Source: Candidatus Micrarchaeota archaeon (GTDB lineage: Archaea > Micrarchaeota > Micrarchaeia > Anstonellales > Bilamarchaeaceae). Taken from it: a DNA stretch of 25,758 bases. Numbering within the stretch: the first letter of the stretch is position 1; each line of letters starts with the position of its first letter. Below the pieces are notes generated by a model. It searched no databases. It was not told the DNA's origin and saw only the letters and a program-made list of their open reading frames with translations. This document shows, piece after piece, positions 1,701-16,011 of the stretch. Made by a program: the position numbers and the translations under genes. The DNA lies in contig JAGVWJ010000019.1 of the NCBI GenBank assembly GCA_018304385.1, forward strand, positions 1 to 25,758, written 5' to 3'.

Positions 1701-2582
1701 CTAAAAATTCATATCTGTTTTTTTAGGGACCTTTTCTTCGTCCTTTTTTAACAAGTAATAAACTGCACCTACTGCAGTCGCAATAACCGCAGCTATAATA
1801 CCTATTTTAACTGGTGTCCCTACTTTTGTAACCTTTTTAACCGGTGCACTTACTTCTCCTGGTGACGCGCCAGCTAAACCTCGTAATTCTTTTATTACTG
1901 CTTCTTCACCGCGTACTAATTCATCCATGCTAGTAGATATTCTTTCCCCAATTCCTTTATTTGCTGTTAATTCTGCTTCGCATTTAGTTATTTGACCTTT
2001 TAGCTGTTTTAATTTTGGATCAAATTCTAGATAATTGCGCACATAATAATAGTAATCTTGATGAGAAAGTCCTGTTACCCTTGTCTCTGCACGAAGTGCA
2101 TCACGTTCTTGCCCATACAAACTTTCTGGAGCGCGCCACACATTCAACATTCTTTCAACATACTCTAACCTGCGCAATTTTTTAACCACATCACCAGTGG
2201 TTCTTTTTTTATGAATATATGAATCATGTGCTTTTTTAGCAAGTTTATTTTCAATATTTTTAGCTGTATCCGTAAGAGTGGCTAACCTTCTTTCAAGTGT
2301 TGGTATTTGTTGTTCTACTTCAGTACGAATAGTTCCCAATGCATTTCTAAATGCTTCAACAGCCTCCTTTGCTCTTTGCCCACTTTTATCCCCTGAGATA
2401 TAACCTGCCATTAGTTGCTTTATTTGTTCTTCATTCGATTTCCCCGCTCTAATTAGATTCTTAATTTCTAGTGCTAATTCGGTTGATCTTCCACTTTTCG
2501 CAAGCTGCATTCCTATTGCAAAATGAGTCTTTGGTTTTTCAGCCTCTTGCGCTGCGAAAAGAAAACCTGGTCTATCTGCCAT
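1701..2582 (-). CDS. Tail-anchored coiled-coil protein, paralogue 1 (293 aa)
   Basis: GGAG SD upstream. Long amphipathic/heptad helices, one C-terminal hydrophobic helix (IGIIAAVIATAVGAVYYLL), basic tail ending KKTDMNF. Confidence 0.85.
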   Translation of the reverse strand: MADRPGFLFAAQEAEKPKTHFAIGMQLAKSGRSTELALEIKNLIRAGKSNEEQIKQLMAGYISGDKSGQRAKEAVEAFRNALGTIRTEVEQQIPTLERRLATLTDTAKNIENKLAKKAHDSYIHKKRTTGDVVKKLRRLEYVERMLNVWRAPESLYGQERDALRAETRVTGLSHQDYYYYVRNYLEFDPKLKQLKGQITKCEAELTANKGIGERISTSMDELVRGEEAVIKELRGLAGASPGEVSAPVKKVTKVGTPVKIGIIAAVIATAVGAVYYLLKKDEEKVPKKTDMNF

Positions 2583-2621
2583 TTAATCTCCGATATTTTG
2601 CGAAATGTGATATATCCAAAC

Positions 2622-3476
2622 TTAGAAATCCACTTCAGGTTTTTTTAGCGGGACTGGAACATTTTTCTTTTCTTCAAATTTATCTAAAAGCTCATTGGTT
2701 ACAAGTGCGCCAGCAGCAACTGCAAAAATTACGCCTGCTGCAACTGCAACTGGCCCCCCTTTAAATTTAAATCCTTTTGCCTCTGCCTCAACAGTTCTGC
2801 CAACTGCTGCTAGTAATGCACTTACTTCTTGAATTACTGGTTTTTCTGCTTTTGCCAATCTTTCTATATTGTTGCCTATCCTGGCGTTTACCTTTCTTAG
2901 TTCTGTGAGTGCCTCTTCACTACTTGCAATGTTCAATCTCAACTGCCCATATTTGGCATCTAAAGCCCTTTTAGCATCTAATCTCCTTGCTAACTCCGCA
3001 TCTAGCGCTTTCCCACTAAATTTTTCTTTTACAAGCTGGCCTTTGACCGCTCCTTCTATTGCTTCTGCCTCTCGCCTAAATTTACTTAAATCTGCTGCAA
3101 TTCTAGATGACCTTCCTTCTACGTTTCTGTTAACTGCCTGCAATGCTGCACCAAGTGCTTTAGCAACATCTATCGCTTTTTCTGGTTTACCCCCAGCATA
3201 TCCAGCAATAAGCTGACGAATTTTAGTTGCATTTGGCCCACCTACAATTTCTATTGTATCTTTTCTTGCTGTATCAAAAAATACCTGCGCACCAGAAGGC
3301 AATCCACCTAAGTGTTGTCTTCCTGTAGTAGTAACATGAATAGTTGCATTTCCAACTAACTTTGCAAGTTCATTTGCCAACCCAGCTACATTTCCATCTC
3401 TGCCAAGTTTCCTTCCTAGTTCAAATGCAGTTTGTGTAGCTTCCCTTCCAAGAAGTCCTAGCTCGAATACGATCAT
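2622..3476 (-). CDS. Tail-anchored coiled-coil protein, paralogue 2 (284 aa)
   Basis: ATG at 3476 is preceded by an AGGTGA SD (the track GTG at 3485 lies inside the SD). C-terminal hydrophobic helix VAVAAGVIFAVAAGALVT, tail ending KKPEVDF. Confidence 0.85.
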   Translation of the reverse strand: MIVFELGLLGREATQTAFELGRKLGRDGNVAGLANELAKLVGNATIHVTTTGRQHLGGLPSGAQVFFDTARKDTIEIVGGPNATKIRQLIAGYAGGKPEKAIDVAKALGAALQAVNRNVEGRSSRIAADLSKFRREAEAIEGAVKGQLVKEKFSGKALDAELARRLDAKRALDAKYGQLRLNIASSEEALTELRKVNARIGNNIERLAKAEKPVIQEVSALLAAVGRTVEAEAKGFKFKGGPVAVAAGVIFAVAAGALVTNELLDKFEEKKNVPVPLKKPEVDF

Positions 3477-3488
3477 TTTTATCACCTT

Positions 3489-4523
3489 TTAGAAATCCAT
3501 TTTTTTCGGGCGCTCTATTTTTTTCGGAACTTGTTTTTCCTCTTCAGGCTTTAGCATATAATAAGCTGCCGCGGCAACTGCAGCTGCTGCAACCGCACCA
3601 AGCATAACAGCAATAGGTTTTCTTCCATGCAATTCTTCTGCGACTGAACCTTTAAGCTGTCTAAGTAGATTTTCAGCACCTTCAAAAACTGGTTTTTTAA
3701 CGCTTTTCAATGCATCTATTCCACGTGATAGTTGTTCGGATACAGATTGGTACTGTATGAAAATCGTCCTTAAACGTTCTGCAGCACTAGAAAATTTTAT
3801 ATAATCTGTATTCGTTCTTAGCCCATCACCTACTAATTTATGATATTCCTTCATAAACGCATCAAAACTTGCAAAACCTTTTTTTCGCACGAGCGCATTC
3901 ATTTCTCTTGATTTTTGGTCGTGTCTTGCAAATGCCTCTCTACCCATTAATGTAAAATCCCTTTCTTCTTTCCATGCAAGAATTTCAGGGGTAATACCTA
4001 ATCTTTGTTGGACTTTCTTCTCAATTTCTTGCTCAACCTTTCTAGCAGCTTGATCAAAGCTCTCTCTTTCTAAGTTTACAAGGCTTAGTTTGTCCTTAAC
4101 ACTTCTTACAGCTGTTTCAAATGCAGTTTGCAATGCTTGTAATGCTTTTGGCCCATTTAATTTAGGATTAGCAGATACAAATCCTCTTACTAAATCTCTT
4201 ATAGCTTGTTCCTGTTCACCGCTGGATTTTTCAAGGAGTTTTATCAAATCCCTTCTTTTTGTATCATCAAATGTAGTACGCCATATATTAGTATCCTCAA
4301 TACGATTATTTGGAAACATCGCTTCCACTCCTAATGCCTTTCTTCCAGTAGTTTCTACTGCTACACTTGGCATTCTACCTTCTGTAACTAATTCTGTTAA
4401 TATTTTGGTAAGTGCTGCTGCTCCATTAGCTCTACGCGCAAGTTCTACGCCTCGCTCGAATGGCCTGATTACTTTGGTTAATTCTGTTTCCCTTCCTAAA
4501 AGACCTGGAACCTGTGCACCCAT
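3489..4523 (-). CDS. Tail-anchored coiled-coil protein, paralogue 3 (344 aa)
   Basis: GGTGA SD. C-terminal hydrophobic helix IAVMLGAVAAAAVAAAAYYML, tail ending PKKMDF. Shares GLLGRE, TTGRxxLG and IxxLxxG[YF] motifs with paralogues 1 and/or 2. Confidence 0.85.
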   Translation of the reverse strand: MGAQVPGLLGRETELTKVIRPFERGVELARRANGAAALTKILTELVTEGRMPSVAVETTGRKALGVEAMFPNNRIEDTNIWRTTFDDTKRRDLIKLLEKSSGEQEQAIRDLVRGFVSANPKLNGPKALQALQTAFETAVRSVKDKLSLVNLERESFDQAARKVEQEIEKKVQQRLGITPEILAWKEERDFTLMGREAFARHDQKSREMNALVRKKGFASFDAFMKEYHKLVGDGLRTNTDYIKFSSAAERLRTIFIQYQSVSEQLSRGIDALKSVKKPVFEGAENLLRQLKGSVAEELHGRKPIAVMLGAVAAAAVAAAAYYMLKPEEEKQVPKKIERPKKMDF

Positions 4524-5549: not shown

Positions 5550-5795
5550 ATGGACATGAACGCAGAAAAAGAAGCACTGAAAATTGTCAATAATACATTA
5601 TCCTCTATTGAAACAGTTATGAAGGATTGGAAGGCTGCAGACAAAAAAACAAAAAACAAATTTACTGAAAGAATTGAAAGATTGGAAAAATGGCACGCCA
5701 CACTAATGCAATGGAAAAAAGAATTTCTTGCAGCAAAATCTGATCAAAGATACAAACTACTTTTGCAACTACATGAAATAGGCAAGATGACATGA
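5550..5795 (+). CDS. Small helical protein (81 aa), translationally coupled to the giant gene
   Basis: Helix-turn(DWKAAD)-helix pattern. Its stop overlaps the next ATG (ATGA at 5792-5795). Confidence 0.75.
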   Translation: MDMNAEKEALKIVNNTLSSIETVMKDWKAADKKTKNKFTERIERLEKWHATLMQWKKEFLAAKSDQRYKLLLQLHEIGKMT

Positions 5796-8700
5796 GTCTT
5801 AAAGAAAAGCTTGATGAAACTGAACAAAAGGTTTCTGAAGCTAGAAAGATGCTAACTGAGATTAGCAGAACTATACCAACAAGAATGGAAGGCACAGAAA
5901 GAAGAATAGAGTCAGGAATGCAGCAAGCAGAACAACAGATTGAAAATCTTAAACAATTTGCAATCAATCTACCTGTGAATGTACCTGAGGTTTTTAAAAA
6001 AGCAGCAAAGGAAAAGGATATTTTTGAAACTGCATTGGAAGATGTAAGAGGCACTTATACTGATGAGCTAGCAGGTGAATTTGCAAAAACGCGCATACTC
6101 TTGCATGCAGGACAAACACTGTTTAAAGAAGGTCTGCGTCTCGAGAAAGAAGGCAAAACAGAGGAAGCAAGGAAAAAATTCGAACAAGCAGCAGAAAAAT
6201 TTGAAAAAGCAAATGCAATGGCATTTGCACTTAAAACATATGCTGATCTAAAAAGAACCGGTGCATCTCAGGAATTTCTTGATGCTGTAAAAAATGCAGC
6301 CAAGGCGCATATAGAAAACGTAGGTCAGAATAATGTTGAAGGAAAACGCTCCGCGCTTATGCTTCTTGCAGCTAATTCTTACATTGATCTGCATGCTAAC
6401 GGCATGTTTGAACAGGCTGCACTTGCAAAGGATTTTACTATATCGCTAAAAGATAAACCTGCTAAGGAATTCGAAATAGCAAGGGATCAGATTGCAATAT
6501 TGCAAGCAATGACAGGCACAGTTGTGCCAGATGAATTCAGGCAGGAATTTTTAAACAAGCTTGGCATTGCATTCTCATTATATAATACAGTGGATACCAG
6601 CAAGCCAAAAGAAGAGATACAAAAACAGCTTGATAAGGCTGCGTTATTTACTTCAGCTGTTTTGCAGCTAGCAACATATGCAAAAATGCCTCCTGAAATG
6701 CGAGAAAAATTAAAAGCATATGTAGCCTCGCTTTTGCAAGGATTTGAGAGCAATGAGATAACCGAGGCGCTAGTAGCAGAAATAGCATTTCGTTTTTCAC
6801 AAGAAATAGTTAATGATTTACTGACAAGAACAATTGATGGAATGAGATTTCCTAAAGAAATCCAAGAAAAAATAAACAGAATTAGAGAAAATATTAAAGA
6901 CCTCATAGAAAATGGGGAAATAGAACAGGCATTCCAGGCAATTGTTTATCTAAATACATATAGATACGGCGCATATATTGAAGCACCATTTAGGAATGAG
7001 CAGGTGCTCGAGTATGTGACCTTTTTATCCGGGCAGATTGATGAGGAGCACGGAAGAGAGATATTTGAAAGATGCATGCCTGAATTTGAAAAATTAAACA
7101 GATATGTACAAATTTATAAAGAAATAGAAAATACACGAGCACTATTCGCTGAAAGAAAGGCATCATTTGCTGCGCTTGAAAGAAGGGATAGGACTATTTT
7201 TGATTATAACAAACTTGAGCAGCAATTAAATGCAGCATTGGATTTAGCAAAGGCGGGAAATTTTGAACAAGCGATAAATGCTGTTGGTGCTGCGCATGCA
7301 GCATTTGTAGATATAGATAATGCTGCAGTCCAACAAGCAAGACAAATAGCAATTGATACGGATATTGAAGGCCTAGAACATTTTGAAGCACAGATTGCAA
7401 GATATAGAAGAGAGCTAAGTGATAAACATAAGGAATTTGCTCCAAAGATTGCTGGACCAAATCTCTATTCCACTTTAAGTAGTATATCAAACGGCCAACT
7501 GGTAGTGCTTGAGGCACAAATAAGCGTTAGGCTTGAAGAATTACGAAGAATAAGGGCAAATCCAAATGCGCACTATGAAGGAGGCGAAATAATTGCTGCA
7601 AAGGCAAGAATGCAAAAATTTGATGAAATCGTTAGATATACCTCAAGTTGCCTTGATATGTTAGCGCTTATAAATAATCTAGCATCAGACCCAGCGCTTA
7701 AAGAAAACGATCGCAGGAGATTAATTGTAATTGCCGGCTTAGTGCAAAACGCATTGGAAAAAATAGGTGCTGAGCCACCTAATTATGAAAGAACAAAAGA
7801 ACTTTTAGAACAGGCAATAACTGGAATATTTAGTATTGCAAAGGAGAAAACAGAATTAAGCGATGATCTTCTGGATCATATGAGAGACACAAAAATCAAT
7901 GTTCTTCGCAATACGCTGTCTGGTGCTTATTCAAATGAAGAGGCAGATCAGAAAGGAATAAACTACGGGCTCTATATTATAGATGCAAATATAAGTGAGG
8001 CATTAAGAGCAGCATTAACACTACCTGGCGAAGAAAGAAATAATGCAATATACCAGGCAGACTATCATGCTAATCTTTTATATGAGATGATAGAAAGCGC
8101 ACTTGCAAATGAGATTAATGCAAAATTATCTTCTCATGCATTTGAACAATGTATGGAAAGCTTTGAATTATTGCTGCAGGCACGCAGTGAAAGAAATGAG
8201 AGGGCTAAAGGCAGGGCATCGATGTCAATAGTAGAGCTATCAAAAATTCCGTCCTTGCCTATTGATGAACATGCAGGCAGCTTACGTGCTGCAATACAAA
8301 TCCAAACAGAGGCACTGCAGGCTTTAGTTGCGAAAAAAATGGGAGATCACAATGCAAGGCATAGATTGTTTATGCCAACAGAAACTGGTACTGCATTGCT
8401 AACTGATCATAAATTCCAAAGCATTATGGATGATATAGAAGGCAGATATTTTGCTAATGGGGAATTTATTCTGCATGTGCACGCACCATCTACATTCTTT
8501 GCAATGTCAATAAAAGATACTATTAGGGCTGTTCGCGGACTGCGATCGCGCTGGAATATTAGTGACGAAAGAGAGATGCAATATCAATTATTTGATATGC
8601 TTGCTAATAATCTGAATGCGCAGCGCGAATTAGTGGAGTATGCAATAACCGCGAATAGGCTGGGTAGAACCATAACAAGCGAAGAATACGGTACAAAAAT

Positions 8701-11326
8701 TGCAGAGATCATGAGGCCATGCCTAGAAGCAAGACACGCAGTATTAGTAAGAGATGGGGATAGTGAAAATGCTGAAAGATTTGCAAACTATTTAAGAGAT
8801 ATAGATCGAACAAAAGGGGACAAGCTTGCAAACCTTAGAATACAAACTGAGATCGGTGATGCGCTTAATGCATCCGAGCAGCAAGAAATTAGCGGGGAAA
8901 TGTGGCAGCTTGTTACTGATACATTTGGTGGATTAATTCCTGGTTATACTTCAATAACAGAATATGCTAGAACAGGGCGAGTAGGTGGATGGACTATTGT
9001 ACTTGATGCTGCTGCATTTATCCCATTTGCTGCATATGCAGAAGCATATAGCGGAAGAGCAAGGCTTACATTATCAGAACTTACTGGTGCCAGTGGCAGA
9101 TGGGGCACTGCATTAGATTTAAGCGAAAACATATCTGATATAAGTGGGATGGTACTTGGCGGATATTATACTGGATCTACAATATATGATGATGTAAGCA
9201 GAAGAAGACAACTTGGCTTAAGGGCAAACATTGAATTTCAGCAGGCAATGGAGGCATTACAGGCTGGACTACCTGTTTTTCTTTGGGGCGGCATGTATAT
9301 ATCAGATAGATACGCAGGCAGTGGCAGTGCATTAAACAGAGAACTAAATCCTGTTGTTTATATTAATCGATTTTCCAGCAGGGTTGCGCCATATGTTCGC
9401 AGGGCACGCGGCATGGAATGGACACAAGCAGATGCAGCGCTTAGATTTGCTAATGATGAATTTGTTGAGTCTATAAAAACACATGGACTAAAAGGTGATA
9501 ACCCAAATCGCGCGATTAGAAATCTCGCATCAGAGGCAACAGAAGAATCATATCATGCAATAAGAGAGCGTATTGATAGCGGATTAGAAAAACTTGGAGA
9601 GGATGCGCCCCAGGAATTTAGAAGATTGGCAGACGAGCGCATTGAACTTGAGATAGAATTAAGAGAAGCAGCTAAACGGGCAAATGATCTTAGTGGTACT
9701 GAGAAAGATGGTGCAATAGCTGAGGCCAGGGCATTAGTAAATAACTTAGATGAGAATCTAGATAAATGGAAACAAGAGATAAAAAAACTAAGAAACAATG
9801 TAGTATCTGAAGCAATAGCACTTGAAAATGTACCAACTGGTTTTCCAAGTGCAGCAAATGAACAATTCGGCACTGATATGCGTGTGATTGTTCGCGCTGC
9901 AATAGCTGAAGAGGATATGGGCAATGTAATAAACAGCGCGCATGCAAAAGGCGAAATATCCAATGAGGAATGGGCAGCATTTTTTTCTTTGCCAGAAGAC
10001 GTTCGCGCACAGCGCGTTGCAGATGTAATCAACAGACGTTATAGTGACAAGGCTGGATTTCAACCTACCATGGAGATGGATCCAACATTATCAAAACATG
10101 GGGAGAGAACTGCGAGCGCAAGAAGACAAATGGTTGAACGACTAAAACAATTGGAACAAGACATGCATGTACGGTTAGTCGATGAAAGCATGGTTGATCT
10201 TCATAAAATACAAACAATGCATTATGAAATCGGAGGTGCAGAACACACGCGTGCATTGGAGCGTATACGTGAGCAATCTTTTTATGAAAGAATGGATGTA
10301 AAATTAAAGCGATTAATAAATGATCCGCGAACAATTAATCCAGATGCCAAATATGTTGATTACAAACTGCTTGCGCTTTTATCTGACGAGCAAACATTCA
10401 TGCGAGCAGCATCTGATTTTGCAAAAACATACCATGGCGCGGACATTGCAAGCATTGATAAGATCTCGTATCTTGGCGCAGGATGTTTTAATGCTGCTGT
10501 GCGCGTAGATGTTACGCTAGCGAATGGGCAAAAAAAATCAATAGTAATACGCGGCCCTGGTGACGCAAGCCCTGATATTGCGGTGAATAAATTGCTAAGA
10601 GAAGCAGGGGTAAATACGTTTAACAGCAGCGATCGCAATTATGAGGGCGTTGATATGAGTGGTCATAGCACATACATATCTGTCCAAGATTTAATAGAGG
10701 GAAGAAGATTAGAGGATGTATTAGATAGTATACGAACAGGAGCATTAGGCCATCAAGAAATAGAACAACTAGTTAGAGGATATTTTGATAATCTGGCAGT
10801 TGCACATTTCTTTGGCTTAACAGATAATCATGAAGGAAATTTTATGATTATGCCAGATGGAAGCTTTATGCGTTTAGATTATGGGGTGCATATGAGCTAT
10901 GGAAATGGAAATATTGCAATAAACGACCTGGCCAACAGATTTATTGAAGAACAACTCTTGCCAGCAATGGGAAAAACAAAACTAGATGATAACCTAAAGC
11001 AAGCTGCAAGAGAGGCATTTACAAAAAGATGGGAGCAATTGCAGGCAGACAGAAACAAGGTAGAAAGTCTAATGACTGATATAGTAAGCAGAAGGGAATT
11101 ATATACTGGAAATGGGGATAATTCTGGTGCACAAACTTATGATTATAATGGAAATGTTACTGGAAGGAATGGGCTTAGATTAATTACTGATGTGGATATC
11201 CAACGTTTTAGAACAATCAACTCGCAATCAGCAAAAACAATGCTTGGTGACTTAAATGATATTGTTGGAGGGGGAACAAATAGCGGAGCAGTTAGTCCAG
11301 ACGCACCTACTGCACCTATGTTTTAA
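5792..11326 (+). CDS. Giant protein (1844 aa): helical N-terminal region, central hydrophobic pre-toxin-like segment, C-terminal atypical kinase domain; candidate toxin/effector
   Basis: Uninterrupted 5.5-kb ORF, no N-terminal signal peptide. Hydrophobic TDTFGGLIPGY...WTIVLDAAAFIPFAAYA at ~8910-9050. Kinase motifs near the C-terminus. Confidence 0.9.
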   Translation: MSLKEKLDETEQKVSEARKMLTEISRTIPTRMEGTERRIESGMQQAEQQIENLKQFAINLPVNVPEVFKKAAKEKDIFETALEDVRGTYTDELAGEFAKTRILLHAGQTLFKEGLRLEKEGKTEEARKKFEQAAEKFEKANAMAFALKTYADLKRTGASQEFLDAVKNAAKAHIENVGQNNVEGKRSALMLLAANSYIDLHANGMFEQAALAKDFTISLKDKPAKEFEIARDQIAILQAMTGTVVPDEFRQEFLNKLGIAFSLYNTVDTSKPKEEIQKQLDKAALFTSAVLQLATYAKMPPEMREKLKAYVASLLQGFESNEITEALVAEIAFRFSQEIVNDLLTRTIDGMRFPKEIQEKINRIRENIKDLIENGEIEQAFQAIVYLNTYRYGAYIEAPFRNEQVLEYVTFLSGQIDEEHGREIFERCMPEFEKLNRYVQIYKEIENTRALFAERKASFAALERRDRTIFDYNKLEQQLNAALDLAKAGNFEQAINAVGAAHAAFVDIDNAAVQQARQIAIDTDIEGLEHFEAQIARYRRELSDKHKEFAPKIAGPNLYSTLSSISNGQLVVLEAQISVRLEELRRIRANPNAHYEGGEIIAAKARMQKFDEIVRYTSSCLDMLALINNLASDPALKENDRRRLIVIAGLVQNALEKIGAEPPNYERTKELLEQAITGIFSIAKEKTELSDDLLDHMRDTKINVLRNTLSGAYSNEEADQKGINYGLYIIDANISEALRAALTLPGEERNNAIYQADYHANLLYEMIESALANEINAKLSSHAFEQCMESFELLLQARSERNERAKGRASMSIVELSKIPSLPIDEHAGSLRAAIQIQTEALQALVAKKMGDHNARHRLFMPTETGTALLTDHKFQSIMDDIEGRYFANGEFILHVHAPSTFFAMSIKDTIRAVRGLRSRWNISDEREMQYQLFDMLANNLNAQRELVEYAITANRLGRTITSEEYGTKIAEIMRPCLEARHAVLVRDGDSENAERFANYLRDIDRTKGDKLANLRIQTEIGDALNASEQQEISGEMWQLVTDTFGGLIPGYTSITEYARTGRVGGWTIVLDAAAFIPFAAYAEAYSGRARLTLSELTGASGRWGTALDLSENISDISGMVLGGYYTGSTIYDDVSRRRQLGLRANIEFQQAMEALQAGLPVFLWGGMYISDRYAGSGSALNRELNPVVYINRFSSRVAPYVRRARGMEWTQADAALRFANDEFVESIKTHGLKGDNPNRAIRNLASEATEESYHAIRERIDSGLEKLGEDAPQEFRRLADERIELEIELREAAKRANDLSGTEKDGAIAEARALVNNLDENLDKWKQEIKKLRNNVVSEAIALENVPTGFPSAANEQFGTDMRVIVRAAIAEEDMGNVINSAHAKGEISNEEWAAFFSLPEDVRAQRVADVINRRYSDKAGFQPTMEMDPTLSKHGERTASARRQMVERLKQLEQDMHVRLVDESMVDLHKIQTMHYEIGGAEHTRALERIREQSFYERMDVKLKRLINDPRTINPDAKYVDYKLLALLSDEQTFMRAASDFAKTYHGADIASIDKISYLGAGCFNAAVRVDVTLANGQKKSIVIRGPGDASPDIAVNKLLREAGVNTFNSSDRNYEGVDMSGHSTYISVQDLIEGRRLEDVLDSIRTGALGHQEIEQLVRGYFDNLAVAHFFGLTDNHEGNFMIMPDGSFMRLDYGVHMSYGNGNIAINDLANRFIEEQLLPAMGKTKLDDNLKQAAREAFTKRWEQLQADRNKVESLMTDIVSRRELYTGNGDNSGAQTYDYNGNVTGRNGLRLITDVDIQRFRTINSQSAKTMLGDLNDIVGGGTNSGAVSPDAPTAPMF
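10460..10890 (+). other. PI3/PI4-kinase / HipA-like kinase domain within the giant protein (about aa 1557-1700)
   Basis: Gly-rich loop LGAGCFNAAV (10472), beta3 IVIR, helix DIAVNKLLREAGV, catalytic loop AHFFGLTDNHEGNFMI (Asp at 10823; cf. PI3K xILGIGDRHxxNIMV), metal-binding RLDYG (Asp at 10877; cf. HIDFG). Confidence 0.75.
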
Positions 11327-11737: not shown

Positions 11738-11783
11738 GTTTATCCTTAATTAGCGGGATAGGGGAGCCTGGAGTTCCCGCCGG

Positions 11784-11828
11784 AAGATGTATTTAATTTT
11801 TTTATAATTGTTAAATACTTCTGGCGAA
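11784..11828 (+). other. tRNA intron 1 (45 nt, position 30/31)
   Basis: BHB-type motif: central helix CGCC(25-28)/GGCG, bulges GG|A and AA|G, intron stem AGA.GTATTTAA/TTAAATAC.TCT. Confidence 0.88.
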
Positions 11829-11841
11829 GCTCATAACCCGG

Positions 11842-11880
11842 TGTGCTTTTAGAATATTTTTTTATCTAAAGCACGGGTAA
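11842..11880 (+). other. tRNA intron 2 (39 nt, position 43/44)
   Basis: Central helix ACCC(38-41)/GGGT, bulges GG|T and AA|A, intron stem GTGCTT..TAGA/TCTA.AAGCAC. Confidence 0.88.
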
Positions 11881-11896
11881 AGGTCGGTAGTTCAAA

Positions 11897-11975
11897 TCAG
11901 TTTTCGGTCTCGAGTGCCCAGTTTCCAGTAATACAAAACTGGGAACCGGAAACGGGAAACTGGAAACCGTGATTG
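11897..11975 (+). other. tRNA intron 3 (79 nt, position 59/60)
   Basis: Outer helix is the T-stem (GGTAG/CTACC). Central helix TTCA/TGAT (3 of 4 pairs), bulges AA|T and TG|T, intron helix CAGTTTTCGG/CTGGAAACCG. The junction is ambiguous by +/-1 nt from sequence alone; BHB geometry favours 59/60. Confidence 0.8.
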
Positions 11976-12058
11976 TCTACCTCCCGCTAATTTTTTTATT
12001 TTTGTGCATTATGTTTCGAGTTCTGGTTAAACTACATATGCAACTATAAGTAATGACA

Positions 12059-12066
12059 TTTATAAA
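12059..12066 (+). promoter_or_regulatory. TATA box of the beta-barrel-like gene
   Basis: TTTATAAA 23-30 nt upstream of ATG 12089 and downstream of the track ATG at 12053. Confidence 0.55.
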
Positions 12067-12088
12067 ATGTTACGAAAATATAATGATT

Positions 12089-13237
12089 ATGCAGAAGCTA
12101 GGCATTAGCAATATTGAACCACGCCAAAAAAGTAAACCTAATTTTCTAAAACGTGCAGTTGCAACTGGCATGCTACTTCTTGGAAGTGCAGCACACGCAG
12201 AGGAAAAAGCTGAAAAAATAGAACAAAAACCTCCTATTACCCTCAAAGTTTCATCAATAAGTATGGGCGAAGCAGCAATAAGAAATTATGGAACAGACGC
12301 TTATGCCAAACTTAATGTACGATGGACAACGCTAGGCGAAGGGTTTATGACAAATTGTATAGGCTTAATAAGATGCAACGAACTTTCATTATATGGTCTA
12401 GCTTTTACTTCAAATCTAAGGTGGCTTGGTATAGATTGGCTTAATGTAAAGTTAGGATATTATGAGATTTCAAGTGGTGGCGAGTCTAGGGCGCGTGATG
12501 TGTATCATAAAAGCAAAGTCGAAGAACAAAGGGCTGTTGCTGGCCTGGGCTTTTTACCAATAAATTCAGATGGAGTACTCCTATATTTAGAAGCAGGTGC
12601 TACTATTCCAACAACTTCTGAACGAAGCGCAAGAACCGCAGTAGCAGATGATGTAAAAACAGATACAACAATTGCAAATGAAAGAAGAAATGAACCTGGC
12701 GCAACATGGAGAGCCATGCTTAATTTAGATAAATATGTACATGTATTTCACGAAGGCTCAAGTGATATGTTATTGCCAATGACCGTCTTAATTAACATTG
12801 GTCTACCATGGTGGGCGCTTCCCTGGACTGATAGAGAAATTCCTCCGGCACTCCATCTGAGAGCATACACTTATGAAAGAGCACAAAACCCTCCAGAACA
12901 ACTTGAAAATCGAGTTTTAATAGGAAATGCTGCTATAGATTACCCATTTTTGACCCATGATAAGAAGATGGGTATGGCAATTTATGCTGGCGGCGGGTTA
13001 GACAACACCAATGTGAACGCTGTTCTTTCAGTGCCATTGGGAATTGCGCTAAGATCTTATATTGGAACCATGGTAGCGACTTTTGATCCTCTTTCTGAAG
13101 GTATCAGACTTGTTATTTCACTTGTTATCCCATCAGAACTGTTTGATGGCTTATTCTTTGGGGCTGATGATGTAGCATCTTTTTCTATACCTGGCTATGT
13201 AATAGGAGATATGGATATGTTTATTGGATATAGATAA
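12089..13237 (+). CDS. Secreted beta-rich protein (~382 aa), beta-barrel-like
   Basis: Extended Sec signal ending LLLGSAAHA|EE. Many alternating-hydrophobic strands (AYAKLNVRW, WLNVKLGYYE, AVAGLGFLP, LLYLEAGATI, LHLRAYTYE, MAIYAGGGL). C-terminus DMFIGYR. Coding status is confident; the fold is inferred. Confidence 0.7.
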   Translation: MQKLGISNIEPRQKSKPNFLKRAVATGMLLLGSAAHAEEKAEKIEQKPPITLKVSSISMGEAAIRNYGTDAYAKLNVRWTTLGEGFMTNCIGLIRCNELSLYGLAFTSNLRWLGIDWLNVKLGYYEISSGGESRARDVYHKSKVEEQRAVAGLGFLPINSDGVLLYLEAGATIPTTSERSARTAVADDVKTDTTIANERRNEPGATWRAMLNLDKYVHVFHEGSSDMLLPMTVLINIGLPWWALPWTDREIPPALHLRAYTYERAQNPPEQLENRVLIGNAAIDYPFLTHDKKMGMAIYAGGGLDNTNVNAVLSVPLGIALRSYIGTMVATFDPLSEGIRLVISLVIPSELFDGLFFGADDVASFSIPGYVIGDMDMFIGYR

Positions 13238-13420: not shown

Positions 13421-13702
13421 TTATTGTTGAATACTCACAGATTTAGTTTCCAATTTATTTCTTATTTCTTCAAACAATGTAGCAACCTGCATTCCTTTTT
13501 CAGTAAGTTTTGCAAATCTTTTTTTTCCTTTTGTTTCCATTGTTACAATTCCGGTTTTTTCTAATTTCGAAATAAAATGAGTAACAAAAACATAAGTAGT
13601 CCCAGTTGCCTTTGCAAGCTTTGATAGATACCAAACTGATTCTGGTTCTTTTAATGCTAGTAAAATACGCAAAGGTTTATCTTTAATTAATTGCAAAAGC
13701 AT
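13421..13702 (-). CDS. Winged helix-turn-helix (MarR-like) transcriptional regulator (93 aa)
   Basis: ILLAL...YLSKLAKATGTTYVFVTHFISKLEKTGIV...GKKRFAKLTEKG matches the wHTH pattern. Confidence 0.85.
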   Translation of the reverse strand: MLLQLIKDKPLRILLALKEPESVWYLSKLAKATGTTYVFVTHFISKLEKTGIVTMETKGKKRFAKLTEKGMQVATLFEEIRNKLETKSVSIQQ

Positions 13703-13861: not shown

Positions 13862-14077
13862 ATGGGTTCAAAAGTCGGAACTGAAAAAATATCAAGAGAA
13901 GATGGATACCTATATTATATAGGTAAAGATGGATTTGTTTGGGCTTCCCCAATGAAGCATAATAAAAAAGGAAGAAAGAAGAAGGTCGGGGGAGAGAAAA
14001 TTTCCAAAGAAAAAGGCTTCATGTACTATATTGGAAAAGACGGCTTTGTTTACAAAGCAAAAATGAAGCATGCGTAA
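13862..14077 (+). CDS. Small basic DNA-binding protein, Cc1 (crenarchaeal chromatin protein 1)-like, two tandem units (71 aa)
   Basis: AGGTGA SD. Repeat KVGxEKISxExGxxYYIGKDGFVxxxxMKH twice. It resembles the Cc1-family pattern from memory, not from a search. Confidence 0.6.
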   Translation: MGSKVGTEKISREDGYLYYIGKDGFVWASPMKHNKKGRKKKVGGEKISKEKGFMYYIGKDGFVYKAKMKHA

Positions 14078-14233: not shown

Positions 14234-14623
14234 ATGCGATTAGTGATATCGGATCCGAAAACAGGAAAAAGCTATCAAACTGAGCTTGCAAAGGAGTTAG
14301 AAACAAATCTGGTTGGTAAAAAAATAGGCGAAGAAGTCGATGGAAATCTAATTGGTGCAGCAGGTTATACGCTACAGTTAACAGGTGGCAGCGACACTAG
14401 TGGGTTTCCAATGAGAAGAGATGTCGCCGGACAGCGCAAGGCACGTATTTTATTAAGCGACGGTGCTGGTTTTAACCCTACCCATCATGGGGAACGAAAA
14501 CGCAAACTAGTTAGAGGAAATGTGTTTTCTTCAGAAATAATGCAAATTAATGCAAAAGTAACTGGTGGACAAGGTCAACCATTAGAACAATTATTTCCAA
14601 AGAAAGAAGCAGCGAAGAAATAA
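14234..14623 (+). CDS. rps6e: 30S ribosomal protein S6e
   Basis: MRLVISDPKTGKSYQ...LVGKKIGEEVDG...LTGGSDTSGFPMR...GERKRKLVRGN, typical archaeal S6e; GAGGTG SD. Confidence 0.96.
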   Translation: MRLVISDPKTGKSYQTELAKELETNLVGKKIGEEVDGNLIGAAGYTLQLTGGSDTSGFPMRRDVAGQRKARILLSDGAGFNPTHHGERKRKLVRGNVFSSEIMQINAKVTGGQGQPLEQLFPKKEAAKK

Positions 14624-14820: not shown

Positions 14821-16011
14821 ATGGTACAGGCTGAAATAAATATTGGAATTCTTGGACATGTTGATCACGGCAAGACAACGCTTACTGAAAAATTAACTGG
14901 TAAATGGACTGGCACGCACAGTGAAGAAATAAAGCGTGGTATTTCTATTCGCTTGGGTTATGCTGAGATGTCTGTTTACTTTTGTAATAAATGCAAACGC
15001 TATTCAGTAAAAGAAAAATGTGATTGTGGCGAAAAGGCTGAGTTTAAAAGAAAAATCTCATTTATCGATGCACCTGGCCATGAAACGCTTATGACAACAG
15101 TAATTGCAGCTAGTAGTATAATAGATGGTGCTTTATTTTTAATATCTGCAAATGAAGAATGCCCTCAACCGCAAACAACCGAACATTTGATGGTTCTAAA
15201 TTCTATTGGTATAAAAAATATAGTAGTAGTGCAAACGAAAGTAGATTTAGTTAGTAAAGAAAAGGCAATTGAAAATTATAAAAAAATTAAAGAATTTTTG
15301 AAAGGTACTGTTGCGGAAAATGCGCCGATAATTCCTATTTCAGCAACATATGACACAAATATTAACAAACTAGTAGAAGCAATTGAAACGACAATCCAAG
15401 TGCCAAAACGAGATGCGCACGCGAAACTAAAGATGTTTATCTCACGCTCTTTTGATGTTAACAAACCGGGTACAGAAATAAAAAATCTAAAAGGCGGAGT
15501 GATTGGCGGTAGCGTAGTACAGGGCGTGCTGCACGTTGGCGATGAAATAGAGATAAAACCTGGCATAACAAGAAAAGAAAATGAAAATCCTTCACCAATA
15601 GTTTGCAAAGTTGAATCTTTAAGGGAAGAAAGTGAACAACTAGATGAAGCGAAACCTGGTGGACTTATTGCTGTTGGTACGGCTATTGATCCTGCGCTTA
15701 CGAAATCTGATTCATTAGTGGGTGCAATCATTGGGTATAAAGGTGAATTGCCTGAGGTCGTAAGTACTATTAAAATAAAATACGAAATGATAAAGAGAAA
15801 GGATATTGAAAATCCGCCGTTAAAGGATAGTGAAATTCTTGCAATAAATTTGAACACTGCAACGACAGTTGGTGTTATTGTTGGATTGGCTAAAGGCATT
15901 GCAACTGTCAAATTAAAGAAACCGCTTGTTAATGATAAAAGTGCGCGGGTTGCATTGAGCAGAAAGGTTGGCCAACGCTGGCGCTTGGCTGGTTGGGGAC
16001 AGTTAGTTTAA
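14821..16011 (+). CDS. eif2g: Translation initiation factor 2 subunit gamma (aIF2-gamma)
   Basis: GHVDHGKTT, HSEEIKRGISIRLGY, Zn-knuckle CxxC..CxC, DAPGHE, PQPQTTEH, SFDVNKPG, C-terminal WRLAGWG. Confidence 0.97.
   Translation: MVQAEINIGILGHVDHGKTTLTEKLTGKWTGTHSEEIKRGISIRLGYAEMSVYFCNKCKRYSVKEKCDCGEKAEFKRKISFIDAPGHETLMTTVIAASSIIDGALFLISANEECPQPQTTEHLMVLNSIGIKNIVVVQTKVDLVSKEKAIENYKKIKEFLKGTVAENAPIIPISATYDTNINKLVEAIETTIQVPKRDAHAKLKMFISRSFDVNKPGTEIKNLKGGVIGGSVVQGVLHVGDEIEIKPGITRKENENPSPIVCKVESLREESEQLDEAKPGGLIAVGTAIDPALTKSDSLVGAIIGYKGELPEVVSTIKIKYEMIKRKDIENPPLKDSEILAINLNTATTVGVIVGLAKGIATVKLKKPLVNDKSARVALSRKVGQRWRLAGWGQLV

Follow-up and report, generated by a model that had tools for sequence, protein, structure and literature searches.

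A candidate porin-like beta-barrel protein with an export signal in a Micrarchaeota-specific protein family

The stretch of DNA analysed here (hereafter the window) comprises 25,758 nucleotides, positions 1 to 25,758 of the forward strand of contig JAGVWJ010000019.1 (assembly GCA_018304385.1) from a Candidatus Micrarchaeota archaeon, whose genome consists of 1.53 Mb in 65 contigs and is 89.4% complete. It carries a coding sequence (12089..13237, plus strand; 382 amino acids plus stop) which a preliminary description, made from the sequence alone, had singled out as a candidate outer-membrane-style beta-barrel protein. The reading frame is open from 12053 to 13237 (394 amino acids), with further in-frame ATGs at 12053 and 12083, and public collections hold the protein in 382-, 384- (start at 12083) and 394-residue (start at 12053) forms, of which NCBI sources use the first. 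An archaeal TATA-box-like element (TTTATAAAA; 12059..12067, plus strand), recognised from the nucleotide sequence only, lies about 26 nt before the ATG at 12089 and would suit a short-leader or leaderless mRNA beginning near M13, i.e., at the short start. Scanning upstream of the gene for bacterial-type promoters gave no signal above chance. Near-identical copies of the gene are present on at least 20 contigs (JGI/IMG, ENA, Logan, NCBI), the longest of which is 80 kb, and the six members of the protein's own cluster vary at two positions; this recurrence across independent contigs shows that the gene is not an assembly accident.

The same contig encodes archaeal ribosomal protein S6e (14234-14623), aIF2-gamma (14821-16011) and tRNA-Ser, its GC content is even along the window, and in codon usage the gene's distance from the genome mean ranks at the 30th percentile (GC content at third codon positions, 0.248 vs 0.269 +/- 0.039). 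To the right lie a small winged helix-turn-helix (wHTH) regulator (13421-13702, minus strand), a conserved 71-residue protein, S6e and aIF2-gamma, all of which are syntenic in genome G001 or in genome G004 of another genus, there without any gene of the barrel type. On the left, orphan genes fill 11.7 kb: three tail-anchored paralogs in tandem, an 1844-residue protein and a 129-residue orphan. This block is kept in the same-genus genome G002 and is not at the corresponding place in G001. Nor did the syntenic locus of a same-genus genome yield a copy of the barrel gene; these flank comparisons place the gene at a synteny break, and it is variable between close relatives. No functional link with the neighbouring genes was found, and PHROGs, PADLOC and Pfam revealed no matching partner family nearby. 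The wHTH gene was considered as a dedicated regulator and rejected, as its G004 homolog sits in the cluster of the 71-residue protein, S6e and aIF2-gamma, apart from the barrel genes of that genome.

The window protein begins with a Sec-type signal peptide (residues 1-37; 12089..12199, plus strand), as read from its sequence, comprising a long, basic n-region (K14, K16, K21 and R22), a 13-residue h-region (AVATGMLLLGSAA) and the c-region AHA, after which the mature chain starts with EE. In the family, all 15 members whose N-terminus is complete share this layout, with AxA-type sites. The mature protein has 345 residues and a net charge of -10, and is rich in Gly, Ala, Leu and aromatic residues. 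Its most hydrophobic 19-residue segment (residues 341-359; Kyte-Doolittle 1.67) is borderline; it includes P, E and D, and the model renders it as a strand followed by a loop, so that no convincing transmembrane helix is seen in the mature part.

Structure prediction with AlphaFold2 gave a mean predicted local distance difference test score (pLDDT) of 53.5 and a predicted template-modelling score of 0.54 when five sequences were used (model 1), rising to 65.7 and 0.67, with core blocks of 70-86, for the mature protein with an 18-sequence alignment (model 2). The predicted beta-barrel core (residues 72-345; 12302..13123, plus strand) has about 15 antiparallel strands with conserved apolar/polar alternation. 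In total, 16 strand elements lie between residues 72 and 381 of model 2 (72-81, 92-110, 115-135, 138-155, 163-185, 189-195, 204-213, 217-224, 231-238, 254-264, 274-290, 294-307, 310-323, 326-333, 338-345 and 374-381), the first and the last of them with low pLDDT, and the element at 189-195 may be a loop hairpin. The acidic/basic segment before the core (residues 38-71; 12200..12301, plus strand) scores below 50 in pLDDT whichever model is taken; it could serve as linker or plug.

Both models were compared with 48,161 PDB representative chains using VIA-align, and for each of them the top 50 of 50 structural matches were outer-membrane barrels of bacterial, mitochondrial or plastid origin. The best matches of model 2 were CdiB (6wil; Z 14.4, 256 residues at 4.7 A), TamA (4n74; Z 13.7) and BamA (Z 13.6), followed by FhaC (Z 13.3), PelB (9h80; Z 13.2), FadL (1t16) and BcsC (6tzk) at Z 12.5 each, and PgaA (Z 11.6); 82 chains reached Z >=8, the usual background being given as 7-8. 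Foldseek likewise matched only barrels, with weak statistics (best E 6e-4, template-modelling scores <=0.39, large root-mean-square deviations). A feature search of the ESM Atlas, which does not depend on a predicted structure, returned 30 matches, every one an unnamed bacterial 'outer membrane protein' cluster, the nearest at 0.93 with 170 shared features.

Along the strands of the family alignment, positions at which none of the 18 sequences has a polar residue alternate with positions at which 30-80% of the residues are polar, the strictly apolar runs cover four to six alternate positions per strand, which is the length of a membrane span, and aromatic residues are found mostly at strand ends. 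The period-2 hydrophobicity of the alignment is 0.76, against 0.51 +/- 0.05 for 1000 column shuffles (z 4.8), the single sequence giving z 2.5. From these models, a membrane-type barrel of about 16 strands appears likely. We infer that the barrel is closed and turns an apolar belt outward, since the match list contains only barrels and a 16-strand meander cannot bury a core. Much of the preliminary description is thereby borne out: it had claimed a cleavable signal ending in AHA, more than a dozen amphipathic strands and a mature part free of transmembrane helices, all of which agree with our data, and the model resembles neither the soluble beta-sandwich nor the propeller that it had named as the contrary outcome, its structural matches being outer-membrane barrels. 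The GYR end that it had pointed out is literally present and is taken up below.

The most conserved motif of the family, HEGSSDMLLPM (pattern G-S-[ST]-[DN]-x3-P; 12749..12781, plus strand), was located from alignments and is followed by the invariant P240 in GLPW, in the region between strands 8, 9 and 10. P230, P240 and P286 are invariant or nearly so across the family alignment. The C-terminal tail (residues 346-382; 13124..13234, plus strand) includes the last predicted strand (374-381; 13208-13231) and ends FIGYR, with a pLDDT of about 33. The strand has an alternating pattern and is alignable only in the closest relatives, which end in GWR, GTGF or GWQQ. The tail is absent from the family members of genus g19, which stop one strand earlier (...LRLGYSR); homology between the GYR end of the window protein and the GYSR end of the g19 proteins was considered and is improbable, as the latter are one strand shorter in the alignment. 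A bacterial beta-signal with its terminal aromatic residue was not found at the C-terminus, the window protein ending ...DMFIGYR and its relatives GWR, GWQQ, LGYSR and, in one case, GTGF.

Searches by sequence returned little for the window protein. It gave no match in Pfam (E up to 1), NCBIfam, PHROGs or PADLOC, and neither phmmer nor a family profile recovered anything meaningful among PDB sequences; a Pfam scan of each of the 18 family members yielded one stray OMP_b-brl match (E 0.034). Over 1.84 billion representative proteins, phmmer produced only three matches at E <=0.001, namely the protein's own cluster and two that fit G004 paralogs by length. A word-indexed search with the single sequence and with a profile found the window protein itself only, and a two-sequence alignment returned the G004 contig alone from genome contigs and nothing from metagenome and viral contigs; the BFVD library of viral structures contained no significant match. 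Searching 60 related genomes directly, we detected four paralogs in G004, at 22-35% identity. An initial picture of a sporadic gene (2 of 176 genomes of the order) was superseded once iterated profiles showed that roughly one in four genomes of a single GTDB family encodes members of a divergent protein family. With the 18-sequence profile, such members were detected in 19 of the 75 genomes sampled from that GTDB family (f1), the 326 genomes from the phylum's remaining families yielding none, and whole-genome searches found relatives in Micrarchaeota genomes only. These relatives adjoin archaeal genes whose identities were read from sequence, e.g., an RNase HII gene or, for the member in G005 found with iterated profiles, a Nop56/58-like gene. 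The window protein is very probably a native, exported, beta-rich member of a Micrarchaeota-specific family.

The window genome itself contains three further members by profile search, two on contig C20 and one on contig C34, in agreement with the paralogs that the preliminary description had suggested looking for. The iterated profiles also brought in a large group of 500-535-residue members in genus g19, whose link with the window type is moderate (hhalign probability 81%, E 1.2e-5, 111 columns) and is centred on G-S-[ST]-[DN]-x3-P ... LPW. Most family members carry one or more extra modules beside the beta domain, and the window protein, a bare beta domain, is the shortest form. The G004 paralogs and the 1025-residue C20 paralog have helical N-terminal extensions before the barrel, which gave no Pfam TPR match; the g19 members have a separate N-domain and a Pro-rich linker, and the 579-residue C20 paralog has a C-terminal helical domain. 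A PG_binding_1 domain was identified in the 1025-residue paralog at 29.3 bits (cut-off 23), which is odd for an archaeon without peptidoglycan.

Some observations were made around these relatives. The two C20 paralogs (L053:3444-6518 and L053:8617-10353) are 2 kb apart and enclose an RnfD/NqrB-like fragment and a DUF4337 membrane protein. On contig C55 of G004 (L009; 2544-6647, minus strand), two barrel paralogs follow one another. A short run of masked bases (X in the translation) separates the downstream paralog from its N-terminal part, which carries the signal peptide, and the two parts are probably one gene of about 680 residues. The gene directly downstream of the barrel-family gene on C34 (L054:2022-3485, minus strand) codes for a 487-residue Cys-rich repeat protein which is secreted, has a membrane anchor at its C-terminus and, from its sequence, may be another surface protein.

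Transmembrane beta-barrels are regarded as diagnostic of the bacterial outer membrane and of organelles that descend from it, and are generally considered to depend on an Omp85 insertase for their assembly. To our knowledge, this class of protein is not established in archaea. Of archaeal outer membranes, a single pore-forming protein is known to have been characterised, Ihomp1/Imp1227 of Ignicoccus; it is a small alpha-helical oligomer and not a beta-barrel, and comes from a different phylum. No paper linking Micrarchaeota or DPANN with beta-barrel outer-membrane proteins was found in the literature searched, the nearest remark concerning a possible distant relative of PopA in Altiarchaeales (PMC12228718).

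Among bacterial barrels, the 16-strand Omp85 proteins (CdiB 6wil, FhaC 4ql0, TamA 4n74/8us1, BamA 9ccg/8xnb) give the closest fits to the model (Z 12.7-14.4, with 224-257 residues superposed at 4.3-5.2 A); they resemble the window protein in its predicted barrel size and strand count, and in Sec export with a cleaved signal peptide. However, the window protein has no POTRA domain, no PF01103 match, no loop-6 VRG[YF] motif and no detectable sequence relation to them, and its organism is archaeal; the protein falls outside the Omp85 superfamily and shares with it the general barrel shape alone. The 16-strand barrels of PelB (9h80), BcsC (6tzk, 9b8h) and PgaA (4y25) cover nearly the whole model (Z 11.6-13.2), and several of the G004 and C20 paralogs repeat the order of these TPR-porins by placing a helical extension before the barrel. 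The window protein differs from them in having only about 35 residues before the barrel, without an N-terminal scaffold, and no polysaccharide synthase or partner gene nearby; it is not a TPR-porin exopolysaccharide secretin, and the similarity is one of barrel fold only. Porins and FadL-type channels (FadL 1t16, OprB 4gf4, OmpG 2f1c, PorB 3a2s; Z 10-12.5) are, like the window protein, barrel-only proteins of 280-420 residues with a signal peptide, but share no sequence similarity with it; the window protein ends in Y-R and not in an aromatic residue, and no beta-barrel assembly machinery (BAM) was found in the genome. Archaeal S-layer proteins (PF05123, TIGR01564/TIGR01567) are glycoproteins of 40-200 kDa, whereas the mature window protein has 345 residues and matches none of these families.

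Profiles for Omp85 (PF01103), POTRA (PF07244) and TamB (PF04357) had no match in the 89.4%-complete genome, and Skp (PF03938) scored only 11.5 bits, which is at noise level, while the same searches were positive in diderm control genomes. Cryo-tomography of archaeal Richmond Mine acidophilic nanoorganisms (ARMAN) described 'conspicuous inner and outer membranes and no S-layer' (PMC4110969). Ca. Micrarchaeum harzensis, on the other hand, has an S-layer, and S-layer protein (SLP) homologs were reported in 38 of 49 Micrarchaeota genomes (bioRxiv 10.1101/2021.04.28.441871); in Microcaldus ARM-1, tomography likewise identified the outer layer as an S-layer (PMC11329633). Contig C26 of the window genome (L035:682-3399) contains a frame of more than 906 residues whose N-terminus scores just below cut-off for TIGR01564 (20.8 bits) and PF05123 (15.7 bits), and judging by its sequence this protein is likely a homolog of the M. 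harzensis S-layer protein. The preliminary description had proposed a porin-like protein of a second membrane, or a pore inserted into the host, and had suggested a search for BamA-like proteins. The fold-level part of that proposal stands, as an outer-membrane-type barrel of about 16 strands by prediction, whereas its diderm premise is weak in view of the S-layers of two cultured relatives and the sub-threshold S-layer-like gene, and BamA-like proteins were among those not found.

We propose, with a probability of roughly 0.4, that the window protein is an exported, porin-like pore of about 16 strands which acts on the cell surface or at the interface with the host, not in the cytoplasmic membrane of the cell itself but in another membrane, and which inserts independently of BAM. 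The Sec system would export the protein and signal peptidase would cut it after AHA (residue 37). The mature chain would then fold into a monomeric barrel with a lipid-facing outside and a polar, water-filled inside, forming a porin-like channel that serves as a passive pore. The window protein would be the minimal, barrel-only member of a fast-evolving paralogous family confined to one family of Micrarchaeota, in which other members have added binding or scaffold modules. The membrane concerned would most likely be that of a partner cell or of a contact-zone structure. If the protein is a membrane barrel, this is the site that we tentatively place first, at odds below even, and both an outer lipid layer of the cell's own and any other location are somewhat less likely. 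We lean towards the partner or contact-zone membrane because the biogenesis genes were not found, the distribution of the family is patchy, its divergence is fast, and several members are fused to binding modules, one of them for peptidoglycan.

Several points weigh against this proposal. We know of no mechanism that would place a monomeric 16-strand barrel in either a foreign membrane or archaeal ether lipids. The chain ends in R where the bacterial beta-signal has its terminal aromatic residue. The models are of moderate confidence, rest on a shallow alignment of 18 sequences and define the first and last strands poorly, and the Foldseek scores are low (<=0.39). As far as sequence patterns go, the conserved dyad alternation would also be compatible with a large soluble beta-sheet protein.

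The fold evidence (the model, the structural matches, the ESM neighbours and the dyad pattern) would fit equally well a porin residing in a second lipid membrane of the archaeon itself, which would bound a periplasm-like space and let small solutes pass as in Gram-negative bacteria. In keeping with such a role, there are several paralogs per genome, the helical extensions before the barrel in the G004 and C20 paralogs recall PgaA, PelB and BcsC, and ARMAN cells show inner and outer membranes without an S-layer (PMC4110969). Nevertheless, this explanation, though a rival to be taken seriously, is rather unlikely, for Omp85, POTRA and TamB were not found and Skp was at noise level in an 89.4%-complete genome; S-layers enclose Ca. 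Micrarchaeum harzensis and Microcaldus ARM-1, SLP homologs were reported in 38 of 49 Micrarchaeota genomes and the window genome has an S-layer-like gene of its own; and a family that is found in about a quarter of one family's sampled genomes, and not at a congener's syntenic site, is unlike a housekeeping porin. It is also unlikely that the protein is outside membranes altogether, i.e., a beta-rich protein that is secreted or associated with the S-layer, with a hydrophobic face that forms a protein core or an interface and with a barrel that has been over-interpreted by AlphaFold from a shallow alignment. The mean pLDDT values (53.5 and 65.7), the Foldseek scores of at most 0.39 with their large deviations, a dyad periodicity that is common to all beta-sheet proteins, the lack of a sequence match to any outer-membrane protein family and the absence from archaea of known machinery for such proteins are all in line with that idea. 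They have to be set against the fact that 50 of the 50 best matches of both models are membrane barrels, with no soluble fold among them, at a Z (14.4) well over the background of 7-8; moreover, a meander of about 16 strands in about 275 residues is unable to surround a hydrophobic core, the language model places the protein beside bacterial outer-membrane protein clusters, and the strictly apolar columns run over four to six alternate positions per strand, the length of a membrane span.

A barrel serving mainly as a membrane anchor or translocator, as in OmpA, autotransporters and two-partner secretion, is suggested by the appearance of CdiB, FhaC, TamA, BamA and the autotransporter EspP among the best structural matches and by the passenger-like module that most family members carry before or after the barrel; the window copy would then be a stripped-down or decaying paralog. 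We consider this very unlikely because the window protein has no passenger (about 35 residues precede the barrel) and no POTRA, no candidate cargo gene of any known family is adjacent, and the frame is intact and near-identical across assemblies. Finally, the fold class is otherwise bacterial and the left flank (1-11.7 kb) holds orphan genes only, as might be expected had a bacterial outer-membrane protein gene entered through contamination, chimeric assembly or very recent transfer. We reject this as highly improbable on codon usage, contig content and recurrence in independent assemblies: the gene shares its contig with archaeal S6e, aIF2-gamma and a tRNA, does not stand out from the genome in composition or codon usage, and has on its left an island that a same-genus genome retains; the search of 1.84 billion proteins returned only the protein's own cluster and two matches of G004-paralog length, and relatives were found in Micrarchaeota genomes only, beside archaeal genes.

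If the exported pore that we favour is real, a native archaeal barrel family without an insertase would reopen the question of the disputed second membrane of Micrarchaeota (ARMAN-type cells), provide a candidate pore by which host-dependent Micrarchaeota get metabolites, and supply a natural system in which to test how barrels fold without BAM, possibly into ether lipids. As the smallest, barrel-only member, the window protein would be the easiest to express, refold and record in bilayers. A more far-reaching version, which we regard as distinctly unlikely, is that members of family f1 build a lipid outer layer of their own, or a contact membrane shared with their partner, and fill it with lineage-specific barrels that are unrelated in sequence to bacterial outer-membrane proteins and are assembled without Omp85; such a layer would represent an independent archaeal origin of an outer-membrane barrel proteome.

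The neighbouring genes have features of their own. In the left-flank block, the three tandem paralogs (1701-4523, minus strand; 293, 287 and 344 residues) are coiled-coil-like, each with a terminal transmembrane helix and a Lys-rich tail stopping in DF or NF. Neither Pfam nor PHROGs gave a match for these paralogs and PADLOC gave one weak LmuB-like match; their homologs occur in the same order in G002. The 1844-residue orphan (5792-11326, plus strand) has a long helical N-terminal part with weak TPR matches, hydrophobic segments near residues 1050-1150 and a C-terminus resembling ABC1 atypical kinases (PF03109, 19.7 bits, below cut-off); its residues 1-650 share 34% identity with a protein at a contig end of G002. 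The 71-residue protein on the right (13862-14077, plus strand) consists of two copies of a motif of about 30 residues, EKISxExGxxYYIGKDGFV...MKH; it is 75-85% identical in G001 and G004, always adjoins S6e and aIF2-gamma, and matches no family. Between the 129-residue orphan and the barrel gene (11741-11995, plus strand) there are tRNA-like ends, 5' GCGGGAT AGGGGAGCCTGG... and 3' ...CTCCCGCTA, for which ARAGORN and Rfam called no tRNA. The two ends are about 200 nt apart and span a long imperfect hairpin (11898-11962), and this arrangement may represent a heavily interrupted tRNA gene.

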